Assembly: GCA_965208635.1 (NCBI GenBank)
Contig: OZ242349.1
Location: 4,925,696-4,989,695, forward strand
DNA from: Candidatus Poribacteria bacterium
GTDB taxonomy: Bacteria; Poribacteria; WGA-4E; WGA-3G
Direction: 5' to 3'
DNA length: 64,000 nt
In this document: one piece after another, positions 3,351-46,082 of the stretch
How the letters are laid out: each line of letters starts with the position of its first letter
Numbering within the stretch: position 1 is the stretch's first letter
Translations under genes and position numbers: made by a program
Notes under the pieces: model-generated
Databases searched by the model: none
The model's input: only the letters and a program-made list of their open reading frames with translations
Told to the model about the DNA's origin: nothing

Positions 3351-3444
3351 GCAAAACTCCTTACAAATAGCATTGCAAACAGTATACCACAAATTGAGAA
3401 GTTCTACACAGAAAATCTCAGGGGTAATCTTTGTTTTCCCAAGT

Positions 3445-3472
3445 CCGGTAGGTGCGGTTTCCCAACCGCACC
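3445..3472. repeat. REP-like hairpin CCGGTAGGTGCGGTT-loop-AACCGCACC (family copy 1 of 4)
   Basis: 9-bp perfect stem. The same element occurs at 6865-6891, 17445-17472 and 24494-24521. It sits in a divergent intergenic region, so it is not acting as a terminator here. Confidence 0.5.
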
Positions 3473-3574
3473 TTTTCGCTTTTCTTTTTTATACGCGCAT
3501 GATACAATTACTTTGAATGAACACAATACTATGGCTTTCGTAGAAATCAAGTTATACTACAAATAAAGATATCT

Positions 3575-6500
3575 ATGTTAAATAAAAACACATCCCTAAA
3601 ATCTGGTATCCGAGATAACCTCCTACGTGAAACAGTCCACGATTTTCTACAACAAGAAATTAAGAACGGTTCCGCACTCTCCATCGTCTCCGCCTACTTC
3701 ACCATTTATGCCTACGAAAAGATGCAACACTCCCTGGATAAAATAGAGGAACTCCGTTTTCTTTTTGGGGACCCTGATTTTGTCAAACGTATGGATCCGA
3801 ATAACACAGATACAAAAGCGTTTGATATGACGGATACAGGTCTACAACTCAACCAGCAACTCCGACAGAAACCGATTGCCAAAGCGTGTGCCGAATGGAT
3901 AAACGAGAAGGTAGAAATCCGTACGACCCGCGAATCTAATCTGATACACGGGAAAATGTACCACATCACCAATAACGGCGTTGACAAAGCAATTCTGGGT
4001 AGCTCCAACTTTACGGTGCGCGGACTCGGACTCAGTTCAAATAACAGCAACATTGAACTGAATCTTGAAGTGGATAGCGACCGAGACCGAACCGACCTCA
4101 AGGCGTGGTTTGATGAACTCTGGAATAACGATCAACTCGTTGAAGATGTGAAAAATAAAGTCCTCGCAAAACTGAAGCAGATAGGGCAAGATCACCCACC
4201 AGAACTCGTCTATTACAAAACCCTATACGAACTTTTCCGTGAAGAAATTGAGACCCGACAGACAAACGAACAGACCCTTGAGGATATACATCTATACGAC
4301 ACAAAAATTTGGGGCAAGTTATACGATTTTCAAAAAGAGGGCGCGAAAAGTGTTATTGCTCGGCTGCTGCGACACAACGGTTGTATTTTGGCGGATAGCG
4401 TCGGATTAGGAAAAACATACACTGCACTCGCCGTCATCAAGTTTTTTGAATTGCGAAACGAACGTGTCCTTGTTCTCTGCCCGAAAAAACTCCGCGAAAA
4501 TTGGGCACGCTACCCGGCACATAACTCACAAGCATCCAATGAGTTCCTCGATGATAAGTTCGGATACACCTTACTCTCGCACACCGACCTATCCAGATAC
4601 AGTGGTGATTCTGGCGGTGTCAATCTATCAGATTTCAATTGGCAGAATTTTGACCTGATTGTTATTGACGAATCCCACAACTTCCGAAATGACACCAAAC
4701 CCCGTGAGGACAAAGATGGCAGCTTCCGTCATAGCCGTTATTCCCGCCTATTAGAGGAGGTCATCAAAGAAGGCACAAAAACCAAAGTGTTGATGCTCTC
4801 CGCGACGCCCGTGAATACTTCACTCACTGACCTCCGCAATCAGATATATCTCATGACAGAAAAACGTGAGGATGTCTTTAGAAACAGTTTGGGGGTTAGC
4901 AATATCCGCACTTTAATACGACAGGCGCAAAAAGCCTTCAAGACGTGGGAAGAGAACACCACCAGAGATGGCACAAGAGATAAAACAGAATTATTTAATA
5001 CGTTAGGGGTAGAATTTTTTCAACTCCTCGGCGGCGTTTCTATTGCGCGTTCCCGAAGGCATATCATAAAATACTATGCCGAAGAAATAAAAAAAATTGG
5101 TGAATTCCCTACACAACTCGATCCAGTCAATTGCCATCCACCTACCGATCTGTCAGGCGAACTTTCATATAAAGTGTTGGCGGATCAGATTGGTGATTTC
5201 GAGTTGTCCATCTATAGACCCTCCAGTTACGTTGTAGATGAAACAGCAAAACAGCGGTTAGCAGATGAAAAACAGAAATTCCGTTTCAATCAGGAGGATC
5301 GTGAGAAATTCCTTATCGGTATGATGCAGACCAATTTCCTCAAACGGCTGGAAAGTTCTGCTTACTCCCTTTCCAAAACGCTTGAACGCACCATCAACAA
5401 ACACGATGAAATGCTGGAGAAGATTGACCGCTTCCAGAAAAACCAAAATATAGCAGACGCAGGCGCCGATGTCCTTCCCGATGATGATGAAGACGATGAG
5501 GAATTTTTAATCAATCGTGCCAGAAATCCCTACCATCTAAAAGAATTGGATTGCACCCGCTGGAAACAGGACATCAACCAAGATAAACAGACATTAACCG
5601 CTGTGTTGGAAAAAGTGAAATCCATCACATCAGAACGGGATGGAAAACTGAAAGAGATTAAAAAACACATCCGAGATAAGGTGCTAAATGCAACAAAAGA
5701 TAAGGACGGAAACCCCAATCGCAAACTGCTCATCTTTACCACCTTCAAGGATACGGCAGAATATCTCTATGATCACTTGTCTGAACTCATATCGGAATTA
5801 GGGCTGAATATGGCACTCGTTTCTGGAGATATGACGCGAACGACCTGCGGAGAAAATAAATTCAACGATATTCTTACGAACTTTGCCCCCCGCGCAAGAG
5901 GACGTTCTGAGGACATCAGCGACAACATAGACCTGATGATTGCGACAGACTGTATCTCAGAAGGGCAAAACCTTCAGGACTGCGATACCGTTCTAAACTA
6001 CGATATACACTGGAATCCCGTCCGTATTATTCAACGGTTCGGGCGGATTGATAGGATCGGTAGCAATAATGTCTCAGTCAAGATGATTAACTATTGGCCC
6101 ACAGAAGATATGGAGGTCTATCTCCGTCTACGAAATCGCGTTGAATCCCGAATGGCACTCGCCGATGCCACCGCAAGTGGTGATGACGACCCGTTGAATG
6201 AATGGGCTTACGAACAGGCACAGATGGAACTCAACTTCCGGGACAAGCAGTTGGAGCGGCTCCGCGAAGAGGTACTCGATCTGGATGACCTCTCTGACGG
6301 TGTAGTAATGAGCGACTTTACATTAGATTATTTCTTTGCGCAACTCCTGAAGTATCTCGAAAGAAACAGAGCAAAACTTGAGGCAACATCAGACGGTGCT
6401 TATGCCGTTACCAATAACGAAAACAATCCCTCGGAAAACGGTGTCATCTTCTTTCTCCAACAGACCAACGCCAGCACAAATAAACAGGAAAAAACCGCCA

Positions 6501-6853
6501 GTCCCATCCACCCTTACTACGCCGTTTACATCCGAGACAGTGGGGATATCCGTTACGGGTGTATCAATGCGAAACAGGTGTTGGATCTATTTGAGACATC
6601 TGCCGTTGGGAAAGAGGACGCAATAGATGATTTATGTCTCTGGTTTGACCAAGAGACGGAATACGGCGATAACATGACACATTACAACAAACTTTTAGAC
6701 GCCGTCATTTCGCATATCACACGGTCACATACGAAGACACAAAGCCAAATTTTGAAGAGTGGGAGTCCTCGCGACGCAAAACTGACACCCGCATCCAAAG
6801 CCCCTAAAGACACTGGCGATTTCAAGTTGGTGACATGGCTGATTATCACATGA
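3575..6853 (+). CDS. Fused PLD-family nuclease domain (single HKD motif) plus SNF2-family DEAH-box helicase
   Basis: HGKMYHITNNGVDKAILGSSNFT (HxK...GSxN PLD signature) near residue 125. Helicase motifs: I DSVGLGKT, II DESH, III LSATP, C-terminal helicase domain with QRFGRIDRIG (motif VI). 1092 aa, ATG start. Confidence 0.8.
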   Translation: MLNKNTSLKSGIRDNLLRETVHDFLQQEIKNGSALSIVSAYFTIYAYEKMQHSLDKIEELRFLFGDPDFVKRMDPNNTDTKAFDMTDTGLQLNQQLRQKPIAKACAEWINEKVEIRTTRESNLIHGKMYHITNNGVDKAILGSSNFTVRGLGLSSNNSNIELNLEVDSDRDRTDLKAWFDELWNNDQLVEDVKNKVLAKLKQIGQDHPPELVYYKTLYELFREEIETRQTNEQTLEDIHLYDTKIWGKLYDFQKEGAKSVIARLLRHNGCILADSVGLGKTYTALAVIKFFELRNERVLVLCPKKLRENWARYPAHNSQASNEFLDDKFGYTLLSHTDLSRYSGDSGGVNLSDFNWQNFDLIVIDESHNFRNDTKPREDKDGSFRHSRYSRLLEEVIKEGTKTKVLMLSATPVNTSLTDLRNQIYLMTEKREDVFRNSLGVSNIRTLIRQAQKAFKTWEENTTRDGTRDKTELFNTLGVEFFQLLGGVSIARSRRHIIKYYAEEIKKIGEFPTQLDPVNCHPPTDLSGELSYKVLADQIGDFELSIYRPSSYVVDETAKQRLADEKQKFRFNQEDREKFLIGMMQTNFLKRLESSAYSLSKTLERTINKHDEMLEKIDRFQKNQNIADAGADVLPDDDEDDEEFLINRARNPYHLKELDCTRWKQDINQDKQTLTAVLEKVKSITSERDGKLKEIKKHIRDKVLNATKDKDGNPNRKLLIFTTFKDTAEYLYDHLSELISELGLNMALVSGDMTRTTCGENKFNDILTNFAPRARGRSEDISDNIDLMIATDCISEGQNLQDCDTVLNYDIHWNPVRIIQRFGRIDRIGSNNVSVKMINYWPTEDMEVYLRLRNRVESRMALADATASGDDDPLNEWAYEQAQMELNFRDKQLERLREEVLDLDDLSDGVVMSDFTLDYFFAQLLKYLERNRAKLEATSDGAYAVTNNENNPSENGVIFFLQQTNASTNKQEKTASPIHPYYAVYIRDSGDIRYGCINAKQVLDLFETSAVGKEDAIDDLCLWFDQETEYGDNMTHYNKLLDAVISHITRSHTKTQSQILKSGSPRDAKLTPASKAPKDTGDFKLVTWLIIT

Positions 6854-6864
6854 TTAACCCGTCC

Positions 6865-6891
6865 CCGGTAGGTGCGGTTTTTAACCGCACT
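6865..6891. repeat. REP-like hairpin, copy 2 (GGTGCGGTT ttt AACCGCAC), 12 nt after the helicase stop
   Basis: Read directly; it may also act as a transcript 3' stem-loop, but there is no T-tract. Confidence 0.5.
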
Positions 6892-6928
6892 ATAGGTGTC
6901 AATTTAAGAAAAATTGCATCATGGCATC

Positions 6929-7169
6929 GTAGGTTGGGTTGAACGGGGAATACCAGAGTCCAGTGAATTGAAAGAAACAGTACGCCTTCTCTATACACCT
7001 TCCATTTCAGAGATATGGAGTGAAACCCAACGTCTTTGCGGTTCCCGAAACGCTGCGGGTATGAAGTTGGGTTTCACTCTGTTCTTGGGTATATCCGAGG
7101 CTGTGTTGGATTTCAGGGATATTTGGAACATCGGCATCTGCCTTCTAAGTTCCGTTCAACCCAACCTAC
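6929..7169. mobile_element. MITE-like element (~241 bp) with terminal inverted repeats GTAGGTTGGGTTGAACG / CGTTCAACCCAACCTAC and an internal inverted pair GTGAAACCCAACG / GTTGGGTTTCAC; copy 1 of 2
   Basis: Perfect 16-17 bp terminal inverted repeats; a homologous copy sits at 14726-14957 with shared internal blocks. It lies between the helicase and methyltransferase genes and has no coding potential (ORF 6914..7177 is spurious). Confidence 0.55.
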
Positions 7170-7261
7170 AGTACTAAATTGACACCTATGGTGCAGAAAA
7201 TAATAACATCGGGCGGATAAAGCCCTCCAAAAAGAGGAGTCTGTTATAGGAACACAAAATT

Positions 7262-10200
7262 ATGAACAAAGAAGCAATCAAAGCCGCACTATCCGCAATA
7301 CCGACCGGTGACTTTTTAGAAAAGTCAAAAGACCTGCTCGGCACAATAGGCTACCGCAGTGAACTCACCCTTGAACTTTCCGGCACCGTCCACGACTTTT
7401 TTGACGAATTTCCACCACTCAACCCGAACACCAAAACCGAACAGGAATTCCGAAAACACGCTGAATCCGTGCAACTCGTGTTCCAATTCACAAGCGACGA
7501 AATCGCTGATGATCCACAGGGAACACTTTTTGAATCCGCTTCCTTCGACAAAGGAAACATAAAAAGTTTCCTGTTCTGTGCAGTCGAGCTAAAAGACAAC
7601 AACTATTCCCGCACCAAATACGCCGAGTTCACACGAGAAATCAACAAACGTCTGTTCGCACCCACTGTGATTTTATTTCGCGCCGGTAATCATCTGACAG
7701 TTGCATTTGCCGATCGCCGCCCAGACAAAACCGACGAGGACCGCGATGTGCTCGGACAGGTTACCCTCATCAAAGACATCCGTCTCCACAACCCACACCG
7801 CGCACATTTGGACATCCTCTCTGAACTCTCACTTGAAGCGTGCGTCAAGTGGATAGATGAAAAACAAAAACCGAAAAACTTCGACGGTCTACTGGGGGCA
7901 TGGCTCGCCAAACTGGACACCGAAGAACTCAACAAACAGTTCTATCGAAAGCTGTTCGCGTGGTACGAATGGGCAAGAAAAGAAGCAACGTTCCCGACAG
8001 ACGAAAACCGAATCATAGAACCGGAGGAGCATGTAATACGCCTCATCACACGTCTACTCTTCATCTGGTTTATTAAAGAAAAAGGGTTGGTGGCAGATGC
8101 GTTATTCAACAAATCGCAAATCCAAGACCTACTGGCAGAAGACGATTTTGATACCGGAGATTCCTACTATCGCGCCGTGCTACAGAACCTCTTTTTCGCC
8201 ACATTGAACACCGAAATAGACAAACGTAAGTTTAGCACCGTTGGCTACGCCACAAATCGTGATTTCTCGCGTTACCGCTATAAAGCTCAGATGCCTGACC
8301 CCGATAAACTCTTAGAACTGTTTGACCAAACCCCCTTCATCAACGGTGGATTGTTCGATTGTCTGGATAGTTGGGAAGCGACGGGTCAAGAGAGTTACCG
8401 AATCGACTGCTTTTCTGATAATCAGTACCATAAGTTGTCCATCCCCAACCGTCTCTTTTTTCATATAGAGCAAGGATTGATTCCGTTACTTGAGCATTAC
8501 AAATTCACCGTCGAGGAGAACACACCGATAGAGCAAGAGGTGGCATTGGACCCAGAACTACTCGGCAGAGTCTTTGAAAACCTACTTGCTGCCTACAACC
8601 CGGAAACCGGTGCGACGGTGCGAAAACAGACCGGATCCTACTACACCCCACGTGCTATCGTCGATTATATGGTGGAAGAAGCATTGGTCGCCACGTTATC
8701 CCAAAAATGCGATCCAACCGATGGCGACGCGCAACTCTGGAACGAACGGCTACGCTATCTTCTCGACTATGCCCAAGCCTTTGATGATGCCAACGAATGG
8801 TTCGATGATGCTGAAAAAGATGCCGTTGTCCGAGTAATTTCCGAACTCAAGATATTGGATCCCGCAGTGGGTTCCGGTGCATTTCCTATGGGGATGTTGC
8901 ACAAATTAACCCTCGCATTACGCCGACTTGACCCAGACAACACCCGCTGGGAAAAGTTACAGAAGGAACGCGCGCTCCAACGAGCAGAAATAGCGTTTGA
9001 TACACAAGACGACCCAACGCGGCGTGAAGAACTCATCGAAATCGACGAGACTTTCAAACGCTATCGAGACTCAGACTTCGGACGAAAGTTGTATCTCATC
9101 CAAAATAGTATTTTCGGCATAGACATCCAACCCGTGGCGTGCCAGATCGCCAAACTCCGCTTTTTCATATCCCTTGCCATTGAGCAGGAACCCGAGCAGG
9201 ATACACAGAACTTCGGCATCAAACCGTTGCCAAACTTGGAGACGCGCTTTATCGCGGCAAACACACTGATAGGACTCACAGCACAACGGATGCTGACAAG
9301 TAACACCGCGCGAGATTTGGAACGCGAACTGGGTGACAATCGCGAGCGGCATTTTCATGCGACCACCCGTCAACGCAAACGTGAATATCAGCGAAAGGAC
9401 GAGCAACTGCGATCCGAATTGGCAGCGGAGCTAAAAAGCATGGGCACCCCAGCAGATGATGCCGAAAAAATTGCAAAATGGGATCCGTATGACCAGAATG
9501 CCACCGCCGATTGGTTTGATCCTGAATGGATGTTCGGAGTCATAGATGGATTTGATGTGGTGATTGGCAATCCACCCTACATTAGTCATGATAAAATCCC
9601 AAAACAACTTAAAGCCCAAATCAAGAATCATTACCAATCATACGAGCCATTTGCAGACGTATACTGTTATTTTATTGAAAAAACCTTAGAACTACAGAGT
9701 AAGAGGAGCATTCTTAGTTTCATTACCTCAAATTCGTATTTAAGAGCAGAATATGGAGCACCAACCCGCCGCCTATTGCTAAGTAAAAACATACTACTTA
9801 GAATGTTAAATATTGAGGACTCACAGGTCTTCGAGAGTGCAATTGTTAACGTCGCGATAATTGTGTCTCGTACACCGACCAATTCCACTGATGATTCCTG
9901 CCTTGTTGTTAATTCCCCATTTTCAGGTAATAGTTTCGCCGATTTTGTGAAAATCAATGGCTTTAACTATCCTCAATCATACTTTAACTCAAAGTCATGG
10001 AATCTCGCAGAACCGCAGCTGATTGAACTTCAAAAGAAACTGGAATTATCAGGAAAAACTCTTAAAGAGTTTCAGACGAAAATTAGACTTGGTATTGCTA
10101 CTGGTAGCAACGAAGCTTTTCTCATAAATGAAGATCAAAAACGGGAATTTTATGAGAAAAATCCTGTCAATGCTGAAATCATAAAACCTATTTTGAGGGG

Positions 10201-10813
10201 ACGGGACATTTCACGCTACAGTTACAACCTACCCGGGCAGTATATTCTACTCACCAAAAATGGAGTTAATGTAGAAAGAGATTACCCTGATATACATGAA
10301 CATCTAAAGTCGTTCGGGGATAAGTTCAGAAATCGTGGAGCACAGGGACAACATTGGACTAATTTAAGAGCTTGTTCATTCTATGACGACTTCAAAAAGG
10401 AAAAAATCGTGTGGATCGAATTGTCAGATTTGGGACGATTCGCACTTTGTAATGAGGAAATCTATCTACTCAACTCGGCGTACTTTTTATTACCACCTTT
10501 GGGTATAGACTCAAAATTCCTTCTTGGCATCCTAAATTCAAGCACAATTCGCTTTTACCTGAATCTTGTCGCAGAAACAAGCGGAATGGGAACAAGCCGT
10601 TGGATCAACAATTATGTGAAAGAATTCCCAATACCAATAGTTGCTTATGAACAACAAACTGAAATCATTGAACACGTCGATCAACTTCTTGCGATCAAGC
10701 GCGCTGACTCGGATGCGGACACTTCCAATCTTGAAAATGAGATTGACAAACTGGTATACGCCTTATACGACCTAACCGACGATGAGATTGCGATTGTGGA
10801 GGGAAAAGAATGA
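7262..10813 (+). CDS. Gamma-class N6-adenine DNA methyltransferase, large Type IIG / PglX-like architecture with a possible N-terminal PD-(D/E)xK region and a C-terminal target-recognition region
   Basis: Motif I LDPAVGSGAFPMGML near residue 531, then motif IV VIGNPPYISHD near residue 769. The I-then-IV order defines the gamma class. About 530 aa precede motif I, with a possible D-x12-ELK (SFDKG...AVELK). A 414-aa C-terminal region is markedly AT-rich. 1183 aa. Confidence 0.8.
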   Translation: MNKEAIKAALSAIPTGDFLEKSKDLLGTIGYRSELTLELSGTVHDFFDEFPPLNPNTKTEQEFRKHAESVQLVFQFTSDEIADDPQGTLFESASFDKGNIKSFLFCAVELKDNNYSRTKYAEFTREINKRLFAPTVILFRAGNHLTVAFADRRPDKTDEDRDVLGQVTLIKDIRLHNPHRAHLDILSELSLEACVKWIDEKQKPKNFDGLLGAWLAKLDTEELNKQFYRKLFAWYEWARKEATFPTDENRIIEPEEHVIRLITRLLFIWFIKEKGLVADALFNKSQIQDLLAEDDFDTGDSYYRAVLQNLFFATLNTEIDKRKFSTVGYATNRDFSRYRYKAQMPDPDKLLELFDQTPFINGGLFDCLDSWEATGQESYRIDCFSDNQYHKLSIPNRLFFHIEQGLIPLLEHYKFTVEENTPIEQEVALDPELLGRVFENLLAAYNPETGATVRKQTGSYYTPRAIVDYMVEEALVATLSQKCDPTDGDAQLWNERLRYLLDYAQAFDDANEWFDDAEKDAVVRVISELKILDPAVGSGAFPMGMLHKLTLALRRLDPDNTRWEKLQKERALQRAEIAFDTQDDPTRREELIEIDETFKRYRDSDFGRKLYLIQNSIFGIDIQPVACQIAKLRFFISLAIEQEPEQDTQNFGIKPLPNLETRFIAANTLIGLTAQRMLTSNTARDLERELGDNRERHFHATTRQRKREYQRKDEQLRSELAAELKSMGTPADDAEKIAKWDPYDQNATADWFDPEWMFGVIDGFDVVIGNPPYISHDKIPKQLKAQIKNHYQSYEPFADVYCYFIEKTLELQSKRSILSFITSNSYLRAEYGAPTRRLLLSKNILLRMLNIEDSQVFESAIVNVAIIVSRTPTNSTDDSCLVVNSPFSGNSFADFVKINGFNYPQSYFNSKSWNLAEPQLIELQKKLELSGKTLKEFQTKIRLGIATGSNEAFLINEDQKREFYEKNPVNAEIIKPILRGRDISRYSYNLPGQYILLTKNGVNVERDYPDIHEHLKSFGDKFRNRGAQGQHWTNLRACSFYDDFKKEKIVWIELSDLGRFALCNEEIYLLNSAYFLLPPLGIDSKFLLGILNSSTIRFYLNLVAETSGMGTSRWINNYVKEFPIPIVAYEQQTEIIEHVDQLLAIKRADSDADTSNLENEIDKLVYALYDLTDDEIAIVEGKE

Positions 10814-11235
10814 ATACAGGACTAAAGATTTTCATTACCTATGCCCATAAAAATTCAGAAGCAAAGGACGAATTGATAACCAGCCTTGCCGTCCTGAAGC
10901 AAAACGGATTAATAGATGTCTGGCACGACAACGAAATTCTACCTGGAGACAAATGGCGAGATGAAATTTTCAACAACCTTGCTGATTCGGACATTCTACT
11001 CTACCTTACCTGTCGGTATAGTCTTGCCTCTGAAAATTGCAATAAAGAATTAACTGCTGCGTTAAATCCAAATATAAGAGTGATTCCGATTATCCTTGAA
11101 CATTGCGATTGGCTAAATCACCAACTTAGCGATTTTCAAGCTCTACCGGATAAAGGTAAACCTATTAACGAGTGGCAACCTGAGAGCAAAGGGTGGTTAA
11201 ATGTACTGCCATCGGAAATTTGGACCACTCTCTAA
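10810..11235 (+). CDS. TIR-domain protein, start overlapping the methyltransferase stop (ATGA); 3' end replaced by IS-derived sequence
   Basis: IFITYAHKNSEAKDEL (TIR box 1, F-I/V-S/T-Y/H...D). ...DSDILLYLTCRYSLASENCNKELTAAL matches the S-x-W/N-C-x-x-E-L motif that carries the catalytic Glu of TIR NADases. The last 10 codons (VLPSEIWTTL*) come from the IS left end starting at 11202, so the native C-terminus is lost. Confidence 0.6.
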   Translation: MNTGLKIFITYAHKNSEAKDELITSLAVLKQNGLIDVWHDNEILPGDKWRDEIFNNLADSDILLYLTCRYSLASENCNKELTAALNPNIRVIPIILEHCDWLNHQLSDFQALPDKGKPINEWQPESKGWLNVLPSEIWTTL

Positions 11236-11360
11236 ACCAAGATTGTGATACAATAACAATCTATTTGAAAGGAGCATTCCGATGGCGAAACGCAGAAGAT
11301 TTACCCCCGAATTTAAAGCAGAAGTTGTGCTGGAGGCACTTCGCGGTGAAACTTCCCAAG
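11202..11360 (+). mobile_element. Partial (left-end, 159 bp) copy of the same IS3-family element in inverted orientation relative to the full copy; contains IRL and the first 26 codons of orfA
   Basis: Perfect reverse-complement identity of 11202-11360 to 12363-12521. Confidence 0.7.
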
Positions 11361-12170
11361 AGGTGTCAGATACCCTAACGCCGAATGCAGGCGTTTGAGA
11401 TTATACACCTGTGTGATAAAATGACCGATGCTTTGTCGAGCCTCGGTAATATCTTGATAATCATTGAGGTGGACTTCTTCTTCCTTGAGCGTTCGGATCA
11501 ATCTTTCAGCGTATCCATTCTCCCAAGGACACCCGCGGCGAGCTACCGAAATCTCAACACCGTATGCTTGGAGTGTTGCGATATACGCCTTTGAAAGATA
11601 CTGCACGCCTTGATCGGAATGATGAATCTCCGGAATCCTGTCGTGTAAAGCTTGCTCTAAGGGTTTCAAAGTCAGAGTTTGCGTCAAGTCTTGACTGAGG
11701 TTCCATCCTCGAATCATACGTGTGAAGACATCCATGAGCAGCGCGACATAGATGAAGCGTCTGTTGAGGCGGACGTAGGTGATATCGCCGACCCAGACTT
11801 GATCCTGTCGGGAGATCTCAAGCGTCTGTATTCTATTGACCCACGGGTGTGAACCTTCAAGGGACCTCGTGGTTTGACAGACCCGTTTCACCGAGACCGA
11901 GAGGTTATCTTCTTTCATCAACCGAGCGACGCGTCGATACCCAACAGGGTGTCCTTGATTCACCAACAGTTTGGTGATACGTCGATACCCGTAGGTGGGA
12001 TACCGGGCAGCTAACTGCTGTATGTCTGATCGCAGGACTTCTTCAGACGGGTCGCTTTTGGGGTGATAATAGAGCGTGCTCTTGTTGAAACCCAGCACCT
12101 CGCAAATCAGTCGAACCGAATACCTCGTCCGCAACTCCTCAACGATGCGTCGCTGTTGAGACGGGGTCAA
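11313..12170 (-). CDS. IS3-family transposase OrfB (DDE integrase domain); the reading frame runs about 48 nt past the inferred IS end into the inverted partial copy
   Basis: WVGDITYV...HSDQGVQY...NGYAE catalytic-triad context; C-terminal LHSALGYLTP. Confidence 0.75.
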   Translation of the reverse strand: MTPSQQRRIVEELRTRYSVRLICEVLGFNKSTLYYHPKSDPSEEVLRSDIQQLAARYPTYGYRRITKLLVNQGHPVGYRRVARLMKEDNLSVSVKRVCQTTRSLEGSHPWVNRIQTLEISRQDQVWVGDITYVRLNRRFIYVALLMDVFTRMIRGWNLSQDLTQTLTLKPLEQALHDRIPEIHHSDQGVQYLSKAYIATLQAYGVEISVARRGCPWENGYAERLIRTLKEEEVHLNDYQDITEARQSIGHFITQVYNLKRLHSALGYLTPLGKFHREVPPAQLLL

Positions 12171-12521
12171 TCCAACAATGTCGATGCTTTTTTTTGAATC
12201 TCCATCGCCAGGGTCAACCGTCCAACGAGTTGCTCAAGTTGAGCCACCCGTTCTACGGACTCGCTCGACTGCTTATCCGTAGCGTCAAAGAGCGTCGCTA
12301 TATTTTCAACGACTTGCTGCTTCCACTTTGAGACTTGGTCTGCACTTAGATTATGGTGCCGACACAATTCCGCTTGGGAAGTTTCACCGCGAAGTGCCTC
12401 CAGCACAACTTCTGCTTTAAATTCGGGGGTAAATCTTCTGCGTTTCGCCATCGGAATGCTCCTTTCAAATAGATTGTTATTGTATCACAATCTTGGTTTA
12501 GAGAGTGGTCCAAATTTCCGA
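11364..12521 (-). mobile_element. IS3-family insertion sequence (orfA plus orfB with an A8G -1 frameshift site), about 1.16 kb; left terminus TGTACTGCCATCGG... at 12521
   Basis: OrfA is an HTH/leucine-zipper protein (MAKRRRFTPEFKAEVV...). OrfB is a DDE transposase ending with the ...HSALGYLTP motif typical of IS3 OrfB. Slippery AAAAAAAAG lies at the orfA/orfB overlap (+ strand 12186-12196 TTTTTTTT). The right boundary is inferred from where the inverted duplicate ends and is uncertain by a few nt. Confidence 0.75.
12167..12451 (-). CDS. IS3-family transposase OrfA (HTH DNA-binding)
   Basis: 94 aa, MAKRRRFTPEFKAEVVLEAL... typical IS3 OrfA; overlaps orfB at the A8G slippery site. Confidence 0.8.
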   Translation of the reverse strand: MAKRRRFTPEFKAEVVLEALRGETSQAELCRHHNLSADQVSKWKQQVVENIATLFDATDKQSSESVERVAQLEQLVGRLTLAMEIQKKASTLLD

Positions 12522-12938
12522 TGGCAGTACACGGATTGATCGTTGTTGTCAAGTGAAAAACCGCCAAGTCGGGTGACAAGACGGTTTTCTTGACAATCCG
12601 TATACTTTGATGTTATCAAAGCATCAGCGGCGGATGCGTCGCGGATCGCTCACCTTGAGCAGCTCGTTGGGTGTCTAACAGTCGCCTTAGACATTGAAAA
12701 AAAAGCCGCGAAGTGGTTGAACTAACGGCATCAAAGAAACGAGAAATGGTGGAAAAAGTGCACTTAGTAAGTGGCTTACTTCTTTTTAAACTCTCATACT
12801 ATCCTTGATAAACTTGGCAAACATATCTCTACTCCGATAGTTATATTTATAGCACGCTTCAGCGAGATATAGAGGCGTGTATCCTGTTGAGTAGTGGTGG
12901 TGTGAACCATACCATGCCCGTTTGACGAAAGACCTATC

Positions 12939-12980
12939 TAAAAACCGCGAAACCTCCTATCGGTCTCGCGGTTTTTTATT
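12939..12980. terminator. Hairpin AAAACCGCGA-loop-TCGCGGTTTTTT (intrinsic-terminator-like, possibly bidirectional) in a 0.9 kb ORF-free region
   Basis: 10-bp stem including a GC core, followed by a T6 tract and preceded by an A-tract; no intact gene upstream. Confidence 0.3.
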
Positions 12981-13447
12981 GCCTACAAACAGCCAAAGTG
13001 TTAGAATGCATAAAAAGAGCTAAAGTAGAAATAACGTGAAACCAAAATTAACCATCCCCCAATCTACTAACTGCGAAATGTTATATTAGATTTAACCAAT
13101 CCCAAAACGACTTATTGCGAAAGATTATATCAAATCTCCTCGAAATCCGCAAAACCGTGTTATAGCACAAAAAAGCGTCTTCATTCGGCCTCCACAAGGT
13201 TTTCTTGAACAAAAACAATACACCGTCATTGATATTCCCGGATCGCTCAAAGAACCCATATTAGACCACCTGCAAAAACAACACGGCATCTCAACGCGAG
13301 ACGTCTACAACGATCTCCATGGATTTATTAGAGACCAGAGCAGCCACCAGAAAACCGCTATAGAAATTTATCAAGCCGAAATGGAGTTGATCGAAAATAC
13401 TTTGAAAACTTGATACACTCAATACCAAACAGAACGGAGGCATAAAC

Positions 13448-14251
13448 ATGAAGACCGAAGTTGTCCAGGATCCTAACGAAAACGCCATCCAACGTTTTAC
13501 CAAACTCATTATGGAAAGACCAAGTTTTGCCACGCCCTATAACTATAGAGGCATCGCGTATGGCAATATCGGCGAAATTGACCGCGCCATTGAAGACTTT
13601 AACACGGCAATTAGACGCAAGGACAACTATGCCGAAGCCTATAGCAACCGTGGCAGCGCATACCGTATCAAAGGGGATTACGATCGCGCCATCACAGATT
13701 GTAACACAGCGATAAAATTGGATCCTGATTTGCCAGAGGCATATAACAACCGTGGGATCGTTTATAAACTCAAGGGTGAGACAGATCGCGCCATTGAAGA
13801 CTATAACACAGCCATAACGCTCGATCCGAACTTTGCTTATGGCTATTACAATCGCGGTATTGTCTACCACGAAAGAGACGAGTTTGATCATGCCATCAAA
13901 GACTACACCAAAGCAATAGAACTGAGGCCAAATCTTGTCCATCCTTACAACCATCGTGGTAACGCTTATTCCCAACAAGGGAAATATAAACTTGCTATCA
14001 AGGACTATAACGAGGCGATACAACGCAAGCCGGATTTAGCAAAGCCATACTACAATCGCGGTATGGTGTTTGTACGCTTGCAAGAATGGGAAAAAGCCAA
14101 AGAAAATCTTACGACTGCCAGAGACAAGCAGGAAAATATTATCCCTGAACAGTTTCGCAAAGAATACGAAAACGTTGCCGATTTTGAGCAGAAATATGAG
14201 ATTAAACTACCGGAAGACATTGCCGCACTGCTAACTCCCTCGCAGGCATAG
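13448..14251 (+). CDS. TPR-repeat protein (about seven regular 34-aa repeats)
   Basis: Repeating AYNNRGIAY..G..D.AI.D.N.AI.L.P pattern; GGAGG RBS 6 nt upstream of the ATG. Confidence 0.7.
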   Translation: MKTEVVQDPNENAIQRFTKLIMERPSFATPYNYRGIAYGNIGEIDRAIEDFNTAIRRKDNYAEAYSNRGSAYRIKGDYDRAITDCNTAIKLDPDLPEAYNNRGIVYKLKGETDRAIEDYNTAITLDPNFAYGYYNRGIVYHERDEFDHAIKDYTKAIELRPNLVHPYNHRGNAYSQQGKYKLAIKDYNEAIQRKPDLAKPYYNRGMVFVRLQEWEKAKENLTTARDKQENIIPEQFRKEYENVADFEQKYEIKLPEDIAALLTPSQA

Positions 14252-14725
14252 CAGTAAAGTGATGTATCGCCGGTTTGCAAAATGTTGCACTTTCCGCCAA
14301 ATTATTTTTTTCGCACAGAAAAATCGAATAAAAAAACGCGCCTAAACCCACACACGCATTGGATTCTCAGACAATTTTAGCAAGTTATCCAAAATACAAA
14401 AAAAGTTACCAAATCGTAACTTTTTAGCAAATGAGTTAAAAATAAATTAACGTATGTTATCCATAAAGACTCATTGAAAACCGAGTCTGAAGTTTCAGAG
14501 TAAGCATTTCAGAAATCGCCTATCAAAACCACTCGAAACCCAGTCAGGGTCTATATTCACAACCTTTTTAAAATCCACCCTTCTTTAAATTTTACTCTGA
14601 ATACTCTGAAACTCGCCACATTTTCTTATCCCTATGTCTGAGCCGTGTCTCTGGGATCGCGATCCTATTGACTGCTAACTACTGAATGCTTCTGAAGGGT
14701 GTGTAAATATTTTGTCAAAATCCTG

Positions 14726-22301: not shown

Positions 22302-22430
22302 TGGCAAGTGGTTTTCTGCTTCTCTTCATAAACATCAAATTGCAAGCCCGTAATGAAATGGAGGGCGGATCTACGGCAGGGGACGTGAACGCTTAACCCC
22401 CTTGAACGAACCGCAAGGAATAATTAAAAC

Positions 22431-23369
22431 ATGAAAATTTCAGTCTGGGACGGTGGACTTTCAGATAGCTACCTCAAACAGGTCACACAACTCGGGGCAG
22501 ACTGTATCGACTTCGGAGGCGGTAACGCCTTTCCCGGGGTCGAAGAACAAGGTTACCCGGATTTGGATGAGGTCCTGAAAATCAAAAAACGGATCCGATC
22601 CTGGGGACTCGACATCAACCGTGTAACACTCCCGAATATCACAGAAAAGTTTATGCAGGGTCAACCCGATGGTGAAAAAGAATTAGAGAACACCTGTAAT
22701 GCCCTCCGGGTTTTCGCAGAAGCCGGCGTCCCTATCGCACGCCAAAGGTTTTGGGGTGATACATTTGACTACCTCATGACGCGTTATTCATCCGTACATA
22801 GGGGCGGTTACACCTCCCGTGGCGAAAGCCGCGCCGCAACCCAAAATCCACCACCGACACCGACGATGGAAGCCCTTGACGAGTGGTGGAAACGTTTCAC
22901 CGAAATCTACGGAGCACTCGTTCCTATCGCCGATGAATACGACATTAAACTCGCTATCCATCCATCAGACGTGCCGAATCCTGATACACCGCTCGGCAGT
23001 CTCGGATTCCACCGTGTCACCGATACCTTTCCCAGCAGGAACGTGGGCTATCTCTATTGTTGCGGCACTCGGGCGGAAGCCGGTGGCAGTGCGATTGTCC
23101 TTGACGAAATCAATAACTACGGACGTAAAGGGCGTATCTTCATGGTTCATCTACGGAACGTCCGCGGTAGCCTGGCAACAGCCGGAGCGTTTGAGGAAGT
23201 CCTGCTTGACGATGGTGATATGAATGCTTTCAAAATCGTCCGAGAATTACAAAAGGTCGGATTTGACGGATGCATCAACGCCGATCACATCCCGAAATTG
23301 GAAGGCGATGTTGGATTAGCTTACTCCGTCGGCTACATCAAGGCACTGTTCGCGGCACTGGCGGCATAA
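22431..23369 (+). CDS. Xylose-isomerase-like TIM-barrel protein (possibly UxuA/mannonate-dehydratase-like)
   Basis: ATG directly after the same CGAACCGCAAGGAATAATTAAAAC leader; weak family-level resemblance only. Confidence 0.4.
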   Translation: MKISVWDGGLSDSYLKQVTQLGADCIDFGGGNAFPGVEEQGYPDLDEVLKIKKRIRSWGLDINRVTLPNITEKFMQGQPDGEKELENTCNALRVFAEAGVPIARQRFWGDTFDYLMTRYSSVHRGGYTSRGESRAATQNPPPTPTMEALDEWWKRFTEIYGALVPIADEYDIKLAIHPSDVPNPDTPLGSLGFHRVTDTFPSRNVGYLYCCGTRAEAGGSAIVLDEINNYGRKGRIFMVHLRNVRGSLATAGAFEEVLLDDGDMNAFKIVRELQKVGFDGCINADHIPKLEGDVGLAYSVGYIKALFAALAA

Positions 23370-44340: not shown

Positions 44341-45978
44341 TTATTTTTCGATATCTGTGTCAAGTTCCCTCGCCTTTTTGAAATCCGCCTTCGCTTCCCT
44401 TTTTTGCCCAAGCCACACTTTCACAAGTGCGCGATTGTAGTAGGCTCTGGCAAAATCAGGTTTGAGACCGACGGTTTTGTCGAAATCCTCAAGTGCTCCA
44501 CTATAGTCATCAAGAGCCGCCTTCGCGACACCGCGCGTGTGGTAGCCGTAAGGATGCTCCGCGTCAAGTTCGATAGCCGAATCACAATCAGTTATTCCTG
44601 CTTCGTATAGGCTTCGGGCATCTGCCATATTTCCTTTATCAAATTCAAAATCCGCCAAGCAAATCCTCGTATATCCACGAATGATGTAGGCGTATGCATC
44701 ATGCCGGTCATAACTGATAGCCTTATCAAAGTCTTCAATCGCGGCGTAATAGTACCGCTGTGCTTCCGTGGCATGTCCTTGGTTAGTTTCAGAGATGCCC
44801 AAGGCGACCTTTACCGCCCCACGCTCGGCGTATGAGGGAAACTTTGGGTAGATACCGATGGCTTTATCAAAGTCTTCAATCGCTGAACGATAGTACTGTT
44901 GCGATACCTCGGTATGTCCCTTGATAAATTCAGAGTGCCCAAGGAGGGTTCTCGCATAGCCGCGCTTGAAATACGCGGGAGTATTCTTGGGGGTAATGCT
45001 GATGGCTTTATCAAGATCCTGAATCGCTGAACGATAATATTGCTGTGCTACCTTTGGCGCATTTTTGTCAAATTGAGAGCGACCCAGGTGGGCTTTGGCA
45101 TATCCACGATTTTCATATCTCATGTCTATTCCTATGAATGTAGGATTTATCGTAAAAAAATTATCAATTGCCTCTATCGCACCAGCATAGTCAGCAGCAT
45201 AGAATCTCTCTGATGATTGTCCGAGGTAGAGATAGGCGCGTATTGTGTCCCTCTTCTGCCATTTCGCCAAAGGCTCAACTGCTCCCGACCGGTCGAGTAG
45301 TCCTTTGAGTACGTTTGACCCAACGGCATAACCGATAGCACCGCTACCAGCAACAGTAATACCGACGACTTCGCCTTTGGTATTCAGCACAGGACCGCCA
45401 CTGGTACCCCCCGGACTGTTGGGTGTTACACGAAGCCACACACCGTTAAGCCGCTCCGGAAGGACGGTGTTCTCCATGATATTAAATCTATCAGCAGGAT
45501 AGCCTACATAGCTTACACCGAAAACAGTCTCACTACTGCTAACTGCGTCACTATTGCCGAGGACAAGCGGTCCGCCTTCTCCAGATATTTGTAGAATGAC
45601 GAGATCATTTTGGGTATCAAATGCCGTAACACCTCGAATTGTATAGTTCGCGTTATCGGTCCTCACGTGTAATGACGCAAGATCAGCATCTGCAAGACCA
45701 TGAATGTTAGTAACAACCTTGTCATTTGCCACGAAAAAGCCGCTACCGATCATCGTTGAATCTCCCTCTCCGTAAACCACACGTACTGTGGATTTTCTGA
45801 CTTTTTCTGCGTCTAAACCCTCAGCCACACCCAGAGGTATACCGGGACCTAATGGCGTGCCGCGTGGCATAGCGTACACTGGGTGCAATTCAATACGTTG
45901 GGGTGTCCGAGTACATGAAAGCATTAGCCCTAAAGCGAGAAAACTGAGTAAAAATTTAGTGATGCGGTTCATCAACAT
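44341..45978 (-). CDS. Lipoprotein with an N-terminal trypsin-like serine peptidase domain and C-terminal TPR repeats
   Basis: GSGFFVANDKVVTNIHG (His), DLVILQI (Asp), GGTSGGPVLN (Ser) catalytic triad context; about 6 TPR-like repeats (YAKAHLGRSQFDKN...). Lipobox LMLSC. I prefer the ATG at 45976-45978, after GGAAGGG. Confidence 0.65.
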   Translation of the reverse strand: MLMNRITKFLLSFLALGLMLSCTRTPQRIELHPVYAMPRGTPLGPGIPLGVAEGLDAEKVRKSTVRVVYGEGDSTMIGSGFFVANDKVVTNIHGLADADLASLHVRTDNANYTIRGVTAFDTQNDLVILQISGEGGPLVLGNSDAVSSSETVFGVSYVGYPADRFNIMENTVLPERLNGVWLRVTPNSPGGTSGGPVLNTKGEVVGITVAGSGAIGYAVGSNVLKGLLDRSGAVEPLAKWQKRDTIRAYLYLGQSSERFYAADYAGAIEAIDNFFTINPTFIGIDMRYENRGYAKAHLGRSQFDKNAPKVAQQYYRSAIQDLDKAISITPKNTPAYFKRGYARTLLGHSEFIKGHTEVSQQYYRSAIEDFDKAIGIYPKFPSYAERGAVKVALGISETNQGHATEAQRYYYAAIEDFDKAISYDRHDAYAYIIRGYTRICLADFEFDKGNMADARSLYEAGITDCDSAIELDAEHPYGYHTRGVAKAALDDYSGALEDFDKTVGLKPDFARAYYNRALVKVWLGQKREAKADFKKARELDTDIEK

Positions 45979-46082
45979 GTTCCCTTCCATAGTTGAAGTT
46001 TCAATTGCATATTCAAATGATACTGACTGTTTTCAATATTAGTTTATAATTTGGTCAGTCTTCTTCAAAAAGATGTGAAGCC

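Follow-up and report, generated by a model that had tools for sequence, protein, structure and literature searches.

The methyltransferase gene and the step in its base composition

The stretch analysed here, called the window throughout, comprises 64,000 nucleotides (nt) of contig OZ242349.1 from a Candidatus Poribacteria bacterium. Its gene of interest, at 7262–10813 on the plus strand, is predicted from Pfam and PADLOC matches to encode a Type IIG/IIL-like adenine methyltransferase of 1183 amino acids (aa) with a C-terminal TaqI_C domain. It lies between a nuclease-helicase gene and a fragment of a TIR-domain gene that is cut off by an insertion sequence (IS). Pfam matches in the protein were Eco57I (aa 615–857), N6_Mtase, MmeI_Mtase and TaqI_C (aa 975–1124), the PADLOC profile REase_MTase_IIG matched with an E-value of 1e-107, and the motifs DPAVGSGAF and NPPY are both read in the sequence. 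The G+C content of the gene falls at the codons for NPPY (motif IV, aa 770–773, 9569–9580 on the plus strand), and this step probably marks the 5' edge of a specificity module that is replaceable by other alleles.

A drop in G+C at about 9.5 kb had been reported in the initial annotation from hand counts, and was borne out by a sliding-window profile and a maximum-likelihood change point. In sliding windows of 400 nt the G+C fraction was 0.50–0.51 at 8601–9600, fell to 0.41 at 9401–9800 and 0.37 at 9601–10200, and was 0.40–0.41 from there up to 11200. The maximum-likelihood two-segment split of 7262–11235 placed the change at nt 9578 (2-log-likelihood support 9432–9619), with a G+C of 0.487 to the left and 0.389 to the right, and a log-likelihood ratio (LLR) of 19, i.e. 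2*LLR = 38 on 1 degree of freedom. At a G+C of 0.390, segment 9570–11235 belongs to the lowest 0.1% of all 1666-nt windows in the 64-kb sequence (mean 0.477, standard deviation 0.024), the minimum being at 9601. The step is far beyond chance, and its change point lies within a few bases of the NPPY codons.

The step is also present in codon usage. Between 7262–9580 and 9583–10732 of the methyltransferase gene, G+C at third codon positions (GC3) fell from 0.528 to 0.355 and that at first positions (GC1) from 0.577 to 0.460, with second positions (GC2) moving from 0.357 to 0.337; the 41 long open reading frames (ORFs) of the window have a GC3 of 0.489 ± 0.039 with a minimum of 0.409. Amino acids alone thus fail to account for the step, because GC3 shifts most and GC2 least. 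The other G+C estimates of the initial annotation also held on computation, with 0.49 in the chromosomal flanks, 0.449 in the helicase gene and 0.399 in the TIR ORF (GC3 0.38). The "intermediate" value of the helicase gene stems from the amino acids that it encodes: its GC3 (0.489) is what the window normally shows, and its GC2 is 0.337. The right-hand limit of the low-G+C segment at 11235, in contrast, proved to be an artefact, as the TIR reading frame runs on into an IS that starts at 11200. The IS itself has a G+C of 0.486, and beyond it 12534–13447 is moderately low at 0.41–0.42.

Near-identical strains carry different modules at one site

Relatives of the methyltransferase number in the thousands in databases. 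One genome per species was scanned, which yielded 453 matching stretches; the best 80 were taken as loci (L001–L080) and combined with four metagenomic contigs (L081–L084) into a set of 84 related loci. Almost all of the best 80 come from metagenome-assembled genomes (MAGs) of Candidatus Poribacteria, and a few from MAGs of Caldilineaceae, Gemmatimonadota, Chlorobiota, Gammaproteobacteria and Thermodesulfobacteriota, an assemblage that we take to be the sponge microbiome, with Poribacteria as sponge symbionts. Several genomes hold two or three methyltransferase paralogues; the closed Poribacteria MAGs OZ244042.1, OZ240244.1 and OZ242325.1, for instance, hold three apiece. In the four metagenomic contigs the locus sits at the window's own chromosomal site, which is bounded by PurS, methyltransferase and SGL genes and by GFO_IDH, AP_endonuc_2 and pectate-lyase genes.

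Alignment of the window with L083 gave 98.7% DNA identity in the left flank, 95.9% in the helicase gene and 94.9% over 7247–9582. Over 9583–10732 there was no detectable DNA similarity between the two. Identity then returned at 97.8% over 10733–11004, which covers the last 81 nt of the methyltransferase gene and the first 195 nt of the TIR gene, and was 97.6% in the right flank from 14313. In the junction alignments similarity ends directly after AATCCACCCTACAT (NPPY-I) and returns at GAAAATGAGATTGA (about 10733). The comparison with L081 was alike, with 96.0% identity up to 9582 and then nothing until a weak 68% match from 10718. The block of L083 is also unlike that of L081 (64% amino-acid identity), so that the three strains, near-isogenic otherwise, hold three different modules. 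The window's own class is found at this site in L084 and L082, where its divergence (89%) is that of the strains in general. The low-G+C part of the methyltransferase gene thus appears to be a specificity module that is exchanged among related Poribacteria strains. The agreement of change point and alignment break means that a compositional step inside a gene can locate a recombination junction to within a few bases.

The module is reassorted across the family

The same break recurs among more distant relatives. In 20 of 120 database homologues, identity to the window's protein was 86–99% over aa 1–769, only 26–29% over aa 770–970, and 40–47% over aa 971–1183. When the gene was compared by blastn with loci of other module classes, similarity stopped at 9579–9584 in nearly all of them and was back at 10648–10734. 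The break near NPPY that the initial annotation had anticipated is therefore found in the homologues, and its proposal of a cassette-like exchange is upheld for the C-terminal part of the methyltransferase, by the discordant identities of the two parts as well as by the syntenic strains with different modules.

Clustering of 185 distinct proteins gave 9 classes of the C-terminal (C) module, with between-class amino-acid identities of about 25–45%, and 22 clusters of the N-terminal (N) part; the window's N cluster is joined to 6 of the 9 C classes. Discordance was seen in both directions: among 426 pairs with N parts at least 90% identical, 168 have C modules below 50% identity, and among 1651 pairs with C modules at least 85% identical, 305 have N parts below 70%. 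The C-terminal tail following the module remains alike even in pairs whose C modules are less than 50% identical (tail identity 0.78). From these comparisons, at least nine C-module classes appear to have been freely recombined with N-terminal parts. An origin of the discordance in mis-assembled, chimeric MAG contigs is unlikely, because the same junction occurs in dozens of independent assemblies, closed chromosomes included.

Paralogues within one genome behave similarly. L033 and L059 on contig CBDBFT010000001.1 have N parts that are 100% identical and C modules that are 71% identical, and for L076 and L077 on OZ242325.1 the values are 95% and 63%. This suggests that gene conversion homogenises the backbone of the paralogues and that their specificity modules are kept distinct. 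A tblastn search of the window with the 185 family proteins found no silent or alternative copy of a C module outside the gene, and within the window there is thus no sign of a shufflon-type switch.

The exchanged part includes catalytic sequence past motif IV

The exchangeable C module (9583–10732, plus strand, 1.15 kb, G+C 0.383) corresponds to aa 775–1157 and contains the methyltransferase fold after motif IV together with the TaqI_C specificity domain. It is followed by a conserved tail of 26 codons (10733–10813, plus strand; ...ENEIDKLVYALYDLTDDEIAIVEGKE), which would be the 3' recombination junction, as similarity resumes here; the NPPY codons would be the 5' junction, on the evidence of the sequence, the blastn ends and the change point. 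About 85 residues of the Pfam Eco57I catalytic domain fall within the module, and several residues after NPPY are invariant across module classes (e.g. D799, Y801, I821-T822-S823-N824 and R836). Together these indicate that the swapped part is the post-motif-IV enzyme plus the target recognition domain (TRD), not the TRD alone. The description of the low-G+C block as TRD-like in the initial annotation was thus right in that the specificity domain is included, and too narrow in that the block also takes in the catalytic part past motif IV, where the Eco57I match extends to aa 857. Sequence matches in the PDB, BseCI and CamA, align only from aa 761–763 onward.

At the other end of the protein, aa 1–217 (7262–7912, plus strand) form an alpha/beta module that is mosaic among loci and has a putative restriction-endonuclease-like fold. 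The predicted structure of this domain (predicted local distance difference test, pLDDT, 89.5) has weak structural similarity to the nuclease domains of DrdV and BpuSI, and the candidate catalytic residues of this putative PD-(D/E)XK nuclease are not conserved in 27–31% of homologues. In blastn, similarity to about 16 loci begins only at 7912–7919, which suggests a separate N-terminal module. A variable linker with insertions and deletions breaks DNA similarity at 9273–9467, and breakpoints recur there and at about 7913.

Low G+C is a property of the module family

We compared base composition on the two sides of NPPY across the related loci. All 77 measurable loci have a lower G+C after NPPY (mean change –0.075) and a lower GC3 (mean change –0.144), whatever their module class; for GC3, a paired t-test on the 71 of these 77 loci with flanking sequence gave t = 21.6 and p = 1e-32. 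In the mean GC3 profile of 68 genes, the value falls from ~0.53 to ~0.39 in the bin of aa 761–780, which contains NPPY. On average the module lies 0.056 below its own genomic flanks and the N part 0.019 above. Module GC3 follows flank G+C with a slope of 0.76 (r 0.57); for the N part the slope is 1.23. One Caldilineaceae genome, with a G+C of 0.56, has a GC3 of 0.73 in the N part and of 0.45 in the module. The module is thus part of a pool in which base composition is uncoupled from that of the host. Because all measurable loci share the step, the step alone is no sign of recent import in the window's strain. For annotation more generally, a low-G+C segment is no evidence of recent import when the whole family shows one.

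Interpretation and rival explanations

We believe that the G+C step is, with good probability, the edge of a 1.15-kb specificity module that undergoes allelic replacement in a Type IIG/IIL-like methyltransferase gene. Two conserved flanks would serve as junctions, on the 5' side the coding stretch that ends in GNPPY(I) and on the 3' side the last 26 codons running into the start of the TIR gene. We infer that the divergent core between them is replaced through homologous recombination or gene conversion within the flanks, and the new core would change the methylated sequence and with it the restriction target. In this way deeply diverged classes would be shuffled between otherwise near-identical genes, both from strain to strain and between the paralogues of a single genome. 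The classes are AT-rich, above all at synonymous sites, and track host G+C weakly, so that the step would be a lasting mark of the whole family, whose module is hypervariable and circulates horizontally, and no scar of a single insertion. If so, uncultured symbionts, Poribacteria and the phyla living with them, diversify the specificity of a very large enzyme family through exchange of a module to which part of the catalytic fold belongs, and linking module classes to methylated motifs in long-read sponge metagenomes would turn the family into a ready catalogue of specificity modules.

Several points limit this reading. The link between module class and recognition sequence is a putative one, read from the TaqI_C domain content. 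The junctions are not placed on a fold, because the full-length AlphaFold2 model (built with 56 homologues) is poor, with a mean pLDDT of 50 and confident prediction at aa 1–225 only; in a Foldseek search of this model against the PDB no match had an E-value below 0.27. The low GC3 of the module could be due to continual horizontal circulation or a foreign low-G+C pool, to AT-biased mutation in a segment too divergent for conversion, unlike the homogenised N parts, or to selection. Finally, in one comparison, that of the window with L003, identity at fourfold-degenerate (4-fold) sites is 0.71 in the C module and 0.77 in the TIR gene against 0.40 in the N part, and larger blocks that include the TIR gene may sometimes move together.

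The comparison with L003, in which the helicase proteins are 46% identical in amino acids, also speaks for the proposal of the initial annotation that TRD and TIR gene form one cassette swapped as a unit, as do the AT-richness of both (GC3 0.36 and 0.38) and the overlap of the methyltransferase and TIR genes by ATGA. As a general rule, however, this proposal is already contradicted by L083, in which the unrelated block ends 81 nt before the methyltransferase stop and the 5' part of the TIR gene is 97.8% identical to the window's. Moreover, TIRs of 87–92% identity stand behind unrelated C modules in L029, L058, L066, L068 and L072, and L001, L002 and L070 have a C module of the window's class but no TIR gene. 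High synonymous identity of TIR is found even where the C-module class differs: in L029, L066, L068 and L072, all with C modules of other classes than the window's, the 5' part of the TIR gene has 4-fold-site identities of 0.62–0.77 to the window, and the N part of the methyltransferase 0.37–0.55. We therefore consider a common TRD-TIR cassette improbable; of the proposed segment the C-terminal part of the methyltransferase stands, and TIR falls outside the exchanged block. The TIR domain would instead be a separate AT-rich module that assorts independently of the specificity module.

Low G+C over a longer range (lowish up to about 14800 except in the IS), the presence of IS elements and IS debris, and the variation between strains downstream of the methyltransferase could alternatively point to a single recent foreign insertion, a genomic island from about 9570 to 14300 that was delivered or bounded by an IS. 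The left edge of such an island would fall inside a gene, at a conserved catalytic motif, and the family-wide step, which is present in all 77 loci including those without an IS, already contradicts this account. The 97.8% identity of 10733–11004 to a strain with another module, and the window's own class at the same site with the usual 89% strain divergence in L084 and L082, also oppose it, and we regard a single insertion as very improbable indeed. An account that needs no exchange at all, with low G+C intrinsic to the segment through amino-acid composition, or arising by AT-biased mutation where the segment evolves fast and selection on it is relaxed or diversifying, is possible but rather unlikely. 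It is consistent with the decrease in GC1, with a step in every class and host, as an intrinsic property would give, and with the partial tracking of host G+C by module GC3. Composition alone fails, though, since synonymous sites drop most and GC2 barely changes, and the mosaicism is seen directly, so that this account explains the AT-richness only and cannot replace exchange. AT-biased drift as the cause of the AT-richness is compatible with allelic module replacement.

Relation to known restriction-modification genes

Module exchange itself is a known kind of behaviour, as Type I, Type III and Type IIG genes are all documented to undergo allelic replacement of the TRD, or domain movement (PMC3077401, PMC3983042). 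In the Helicobacter pylori Type I hsdS, Type III mod and Type IIG genes described there, diverged specificity groups between conserved flanks likewise occur in new combinations from strain to strain and from locus to locus, and a single genome holds paralogues with different groups. Unlike in H. pylori, the 5' junction lies here inside the catalytic domain after motif IV, so that the TRD is exchanged together with part of the methyltransferase fold. No domain movement from one position to another within a gene is evident here, and the hosts are uncultured sponge symbionts. What differs from the precedents is the NPPY junction in the catalytic domain, the very wide distribution in Poribacteria and the family-wide AT-richness at synonymous sites.

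The architecture resembles that of the Type IIG/IIL enzymes MmeI, DrdV and BpuSI, in which an N-terminal nuclease-like domain is followed by a helical region, a gamma-class N6-adenine methyltransferase and a C-terminal TaqI_C-type TRD; the gamma-class motifs (motif I and the NPPY of motif IV) and the C-terminal TRD are present here in the same order. Classical Type IIG enzymes have no HKD-nuclease/SNF2-helicase neighbour, whereas the window has one at 3575–6853 on the plus strand, a 1092-residue predicted fusion of an HKD (PLD-type) nuclease and a SNF2-family helicase (Pfam PLDc_2, SNF2-rel_dom, ResIII, Helicase_C; PADLOC C3a139 "HKD+Snf2", E 2.5e-109). A homologue lies within 8 kb of the methyltransferase in 57 of the 80 loci and is absent in 23, which makes it a frequent, non-obligatory partner.

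Type ISP enzymes (LlaGI/LlaBIII) combine a nuclease, an SF2 helicase-like motor, a methyltransferase and a TRD in one polypeptide; membership is ruled out here, as helicase/nuclease (3575–6853) and methyltransferase/TRD (7262–10813) are two separate genes, 408 nt apart, and the nuclease is of the HKD type. The Type-2 BREX-related (BR) systems (PMC12839542) and Class 1 DISARM also have an HKD-endonuclease on the N-terminus of a SNF2 helicase beside an adenine methyltransferase, and in PADLOC the helicase had weaker matches to DrmD and BrxHII; a DrmMI profile match in the locus was also weaker. No DUF499 ATPase, DUF3780, DrmA or DrmB was found among the ORFs examined in the locus (3400–14300). 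The TRD of Type-2 BR is nested in the methyltransferase core, whereas here it is the C-terminal TaqI_C (aa 975–1124). Membership in Type-2 BR is ruled out by the lacking DUF499/DUF3780 partners, only the HKD-SNF2 architecture being shared, and that in Class 1 DISARM by the lack of DrmA/DrmB (DUF1998) and the housekeeping neighbours SGL, methyltransferase, GFO_IDH and AP_endonuc_2. From these matches the protein can be filed only as a putative Type IIG-like methyltransferase/TRD that is often accompanied by an HKD-SNF2 gene and may also have a TIR-TPR gene beside it.

The genes around the methyltransferase vary. At L030 (672–7983) two tandem methyltransferase paralogues have Schlafen/AlbA_2-HATPase_c_4 and ParA-like ATPase genes between them and no HKD-SNF2 helicase, so the methyltransferase family is combined with different partner sets. 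A Uma2 gene (PF05685, restriction-endonuclease-like) precedes the helicase in L083 (5748–6371) and L084 (6049–6672) and is absent at window 3393–3574, and L082 has an extra gene of 129 aa (9122–9511, dnstrm_HI1420-like) between helicase and methyltransferase.

The TIR-TPR gene and its inactivation

The gene called TIR in the initial annotation is not intact. It is an IS-truncated 5' fragment of a TIR-TPR gene (10810–11199, plus strand), 130 codons long with a complete predicted TIR domain (Pfam TIR_2, E 7e-17; PADLOC ThsB-like, E 4e-25), whose start overlaps the methyltransferase stop; the ORF at 10810–11235 has 141 aa because past 11200 its frame reads IS sequence. A PDB sequence search with the fragment gave no match at E <= 0.01. 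An independent 6.1-kb Tara scaffold contains the identical 141-aa ORF with the same TIR/IS junction, which rules out an assembly artefact. Of the 80 genome loci, 20 have a TIR homologue downstream of the methyltransferase, as have all 4 syntenic contigs; its start overlaps the methyltransferase stop in at least 10 loci. These homologues are 366–951 aa long, mostly 470–950 aa, and consist of TIR plus a long TPR array with a conserved tail, with the exception of L079 (251 aa); the window's ORF matches only their first 133 residues.

The remaining part of the TIR-TPR gene is missing from the window, and the IS is followed by debris of IS origin, by what is left of an FRG-domain gene at its 3' end and by a separate TPR gene of 267 aa. 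Since the sequence beyond the IS is orthologous to genes ~10 kb further downstream in L084, the loss of the TPR part points to a probable IS-associated deletion. Inactivations of the TIR-TPR gene were found in several strains, by an IS at codon 130 in the window (10810–11199), by an IS of that family at codon 65 in L083 (13579–13776), by an in-frame stop at codon 39 in L082 (13549–13665) and by truncation to 251 aa in L079 (13364–14119). Given this independent inactivation, the gene may be costly.

TIR/TPR antiphage proteins have a precedent in the BcTir/Tpr system (bioRxiv 10.1101/2023.05.26.542521). Like Thoeris ThsB and BcTir-Tpr, the proteins here have a TIR_2/ThsB-like domain and, in intact relatives, a long TPR array. 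Unlike in Thoeris, no ThsA-type effector is nearby: the ORFs examined for one, all within the first 20 kb of the window, include no SIR2/SLOG gene. The gene starts on the methyltransferase stop codon and is IS-truncated in the window. We tentatively raise the rather doubtful idea that TIR-TPR is a functional third restriction-modification component, a costly back-up effector (NAD-consuming or signalling) that is translationally coupled to the methyltransferase through the ATGA overlap and associated with it and not with the helicase, which 7 of the 20 TIR-bearing loci lack. If this were true, the locus, with N-terminal, central, C and TIR modules that each assort independently, would be a combinatorial immune cassette in sponge symbionts. 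The recurrent coupling of TIR-TPR to a methyltransferase of restriction-modification type and its repeated inactivation are a lead on layered defence, and an annotation as a 141-aa "TIR protein" describes a fragment.

The insertion sequence and the downstream region

The IS (11200–12533, minus strand) is predicted to be of the IS3 family, with orfA at 12451–12167 and orfB at 12170–11313. It has the hallmarks of that family, namely overlapping orfA (HTH) and orfB (DDE rve) frames (overlap 12167–12170; Pfam HTH_Tnp_1, HTH_21, rve, rve_3) and TG...CA termini (TGTACTGCC...GGCAGTACA), of which the left one is atypical. In place of its left end, the IS has the right end repeated in inverted orientation, orfA start included (162 nt, 11202–11363 and 12370–12531, 99% complementary), so that both junctions are "right ends". 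The IS copy in L083 is 94.8% identical and has no such duplication. The inverted duplication suggests recombination between two inverted IS copies, with deletion.

Non-coding debris follows at 12534–13119 (no strand assigned), with only short scattered DNA matches in related loci; just after 12534 it has an apparent remnant of the 3' end of a second IS3-type orfA, whose frame translation ...RIAHLEQLVGCLTVALDIEKKAAKWLN* resembles an orfA C-terminus. Next come the predicted 3' remnant of an FRG-domain gene (13120–13447, plus strand; PF08867 / PADLOC PDC-S15, assigned by the DNA match to L084 and the Pfam and PADLOC matches of the L084 protein) and a TPR-only gene (13448–14251, plus strand, 267 aa, Pfam TPR), the ortholog of which runs in L084 from 23096 to the end. 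Window 13120–13907 is 94.7% identical to L084 22768–23555, which contains the end of the FRG gene at 22351–23061. The TPR-only ORF has the same C-terminal tail as the TIR-TPR proteins. It was considered as the displaced 3' end of the TIR gene, which is ruled out by the 94.7% DNA match to a separate TPR gene in L084 that lies ~10 kb downstream of the methyltransferase and is preceded by the same FRG-gene end.

Arrays of TIR-TPR, FRG-domain, FRG-TPR and TPR-only genes occur downstream at window 13120–14251, L081 16713–20512, L083 14938–16765 and L084 20089–23555. A single C-terminal tail, ...EWEKAK...FEQ...LPEDIAALLTP, is found in the TPR genes compared, namely the TPR-only ORF of the window and the genes for TIR-TPR proteins; this looks like a common TPR scaffold carrying interchangeable N-terminal effector domains. 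Elsewhere in the window, a 549-aa TPR-repeat ORF at 44341–45990 on the minus strand has weak tblastn matches (24–34%) to the TIR-TPR arrays, and this likeness is probably repeat-level similarity only.

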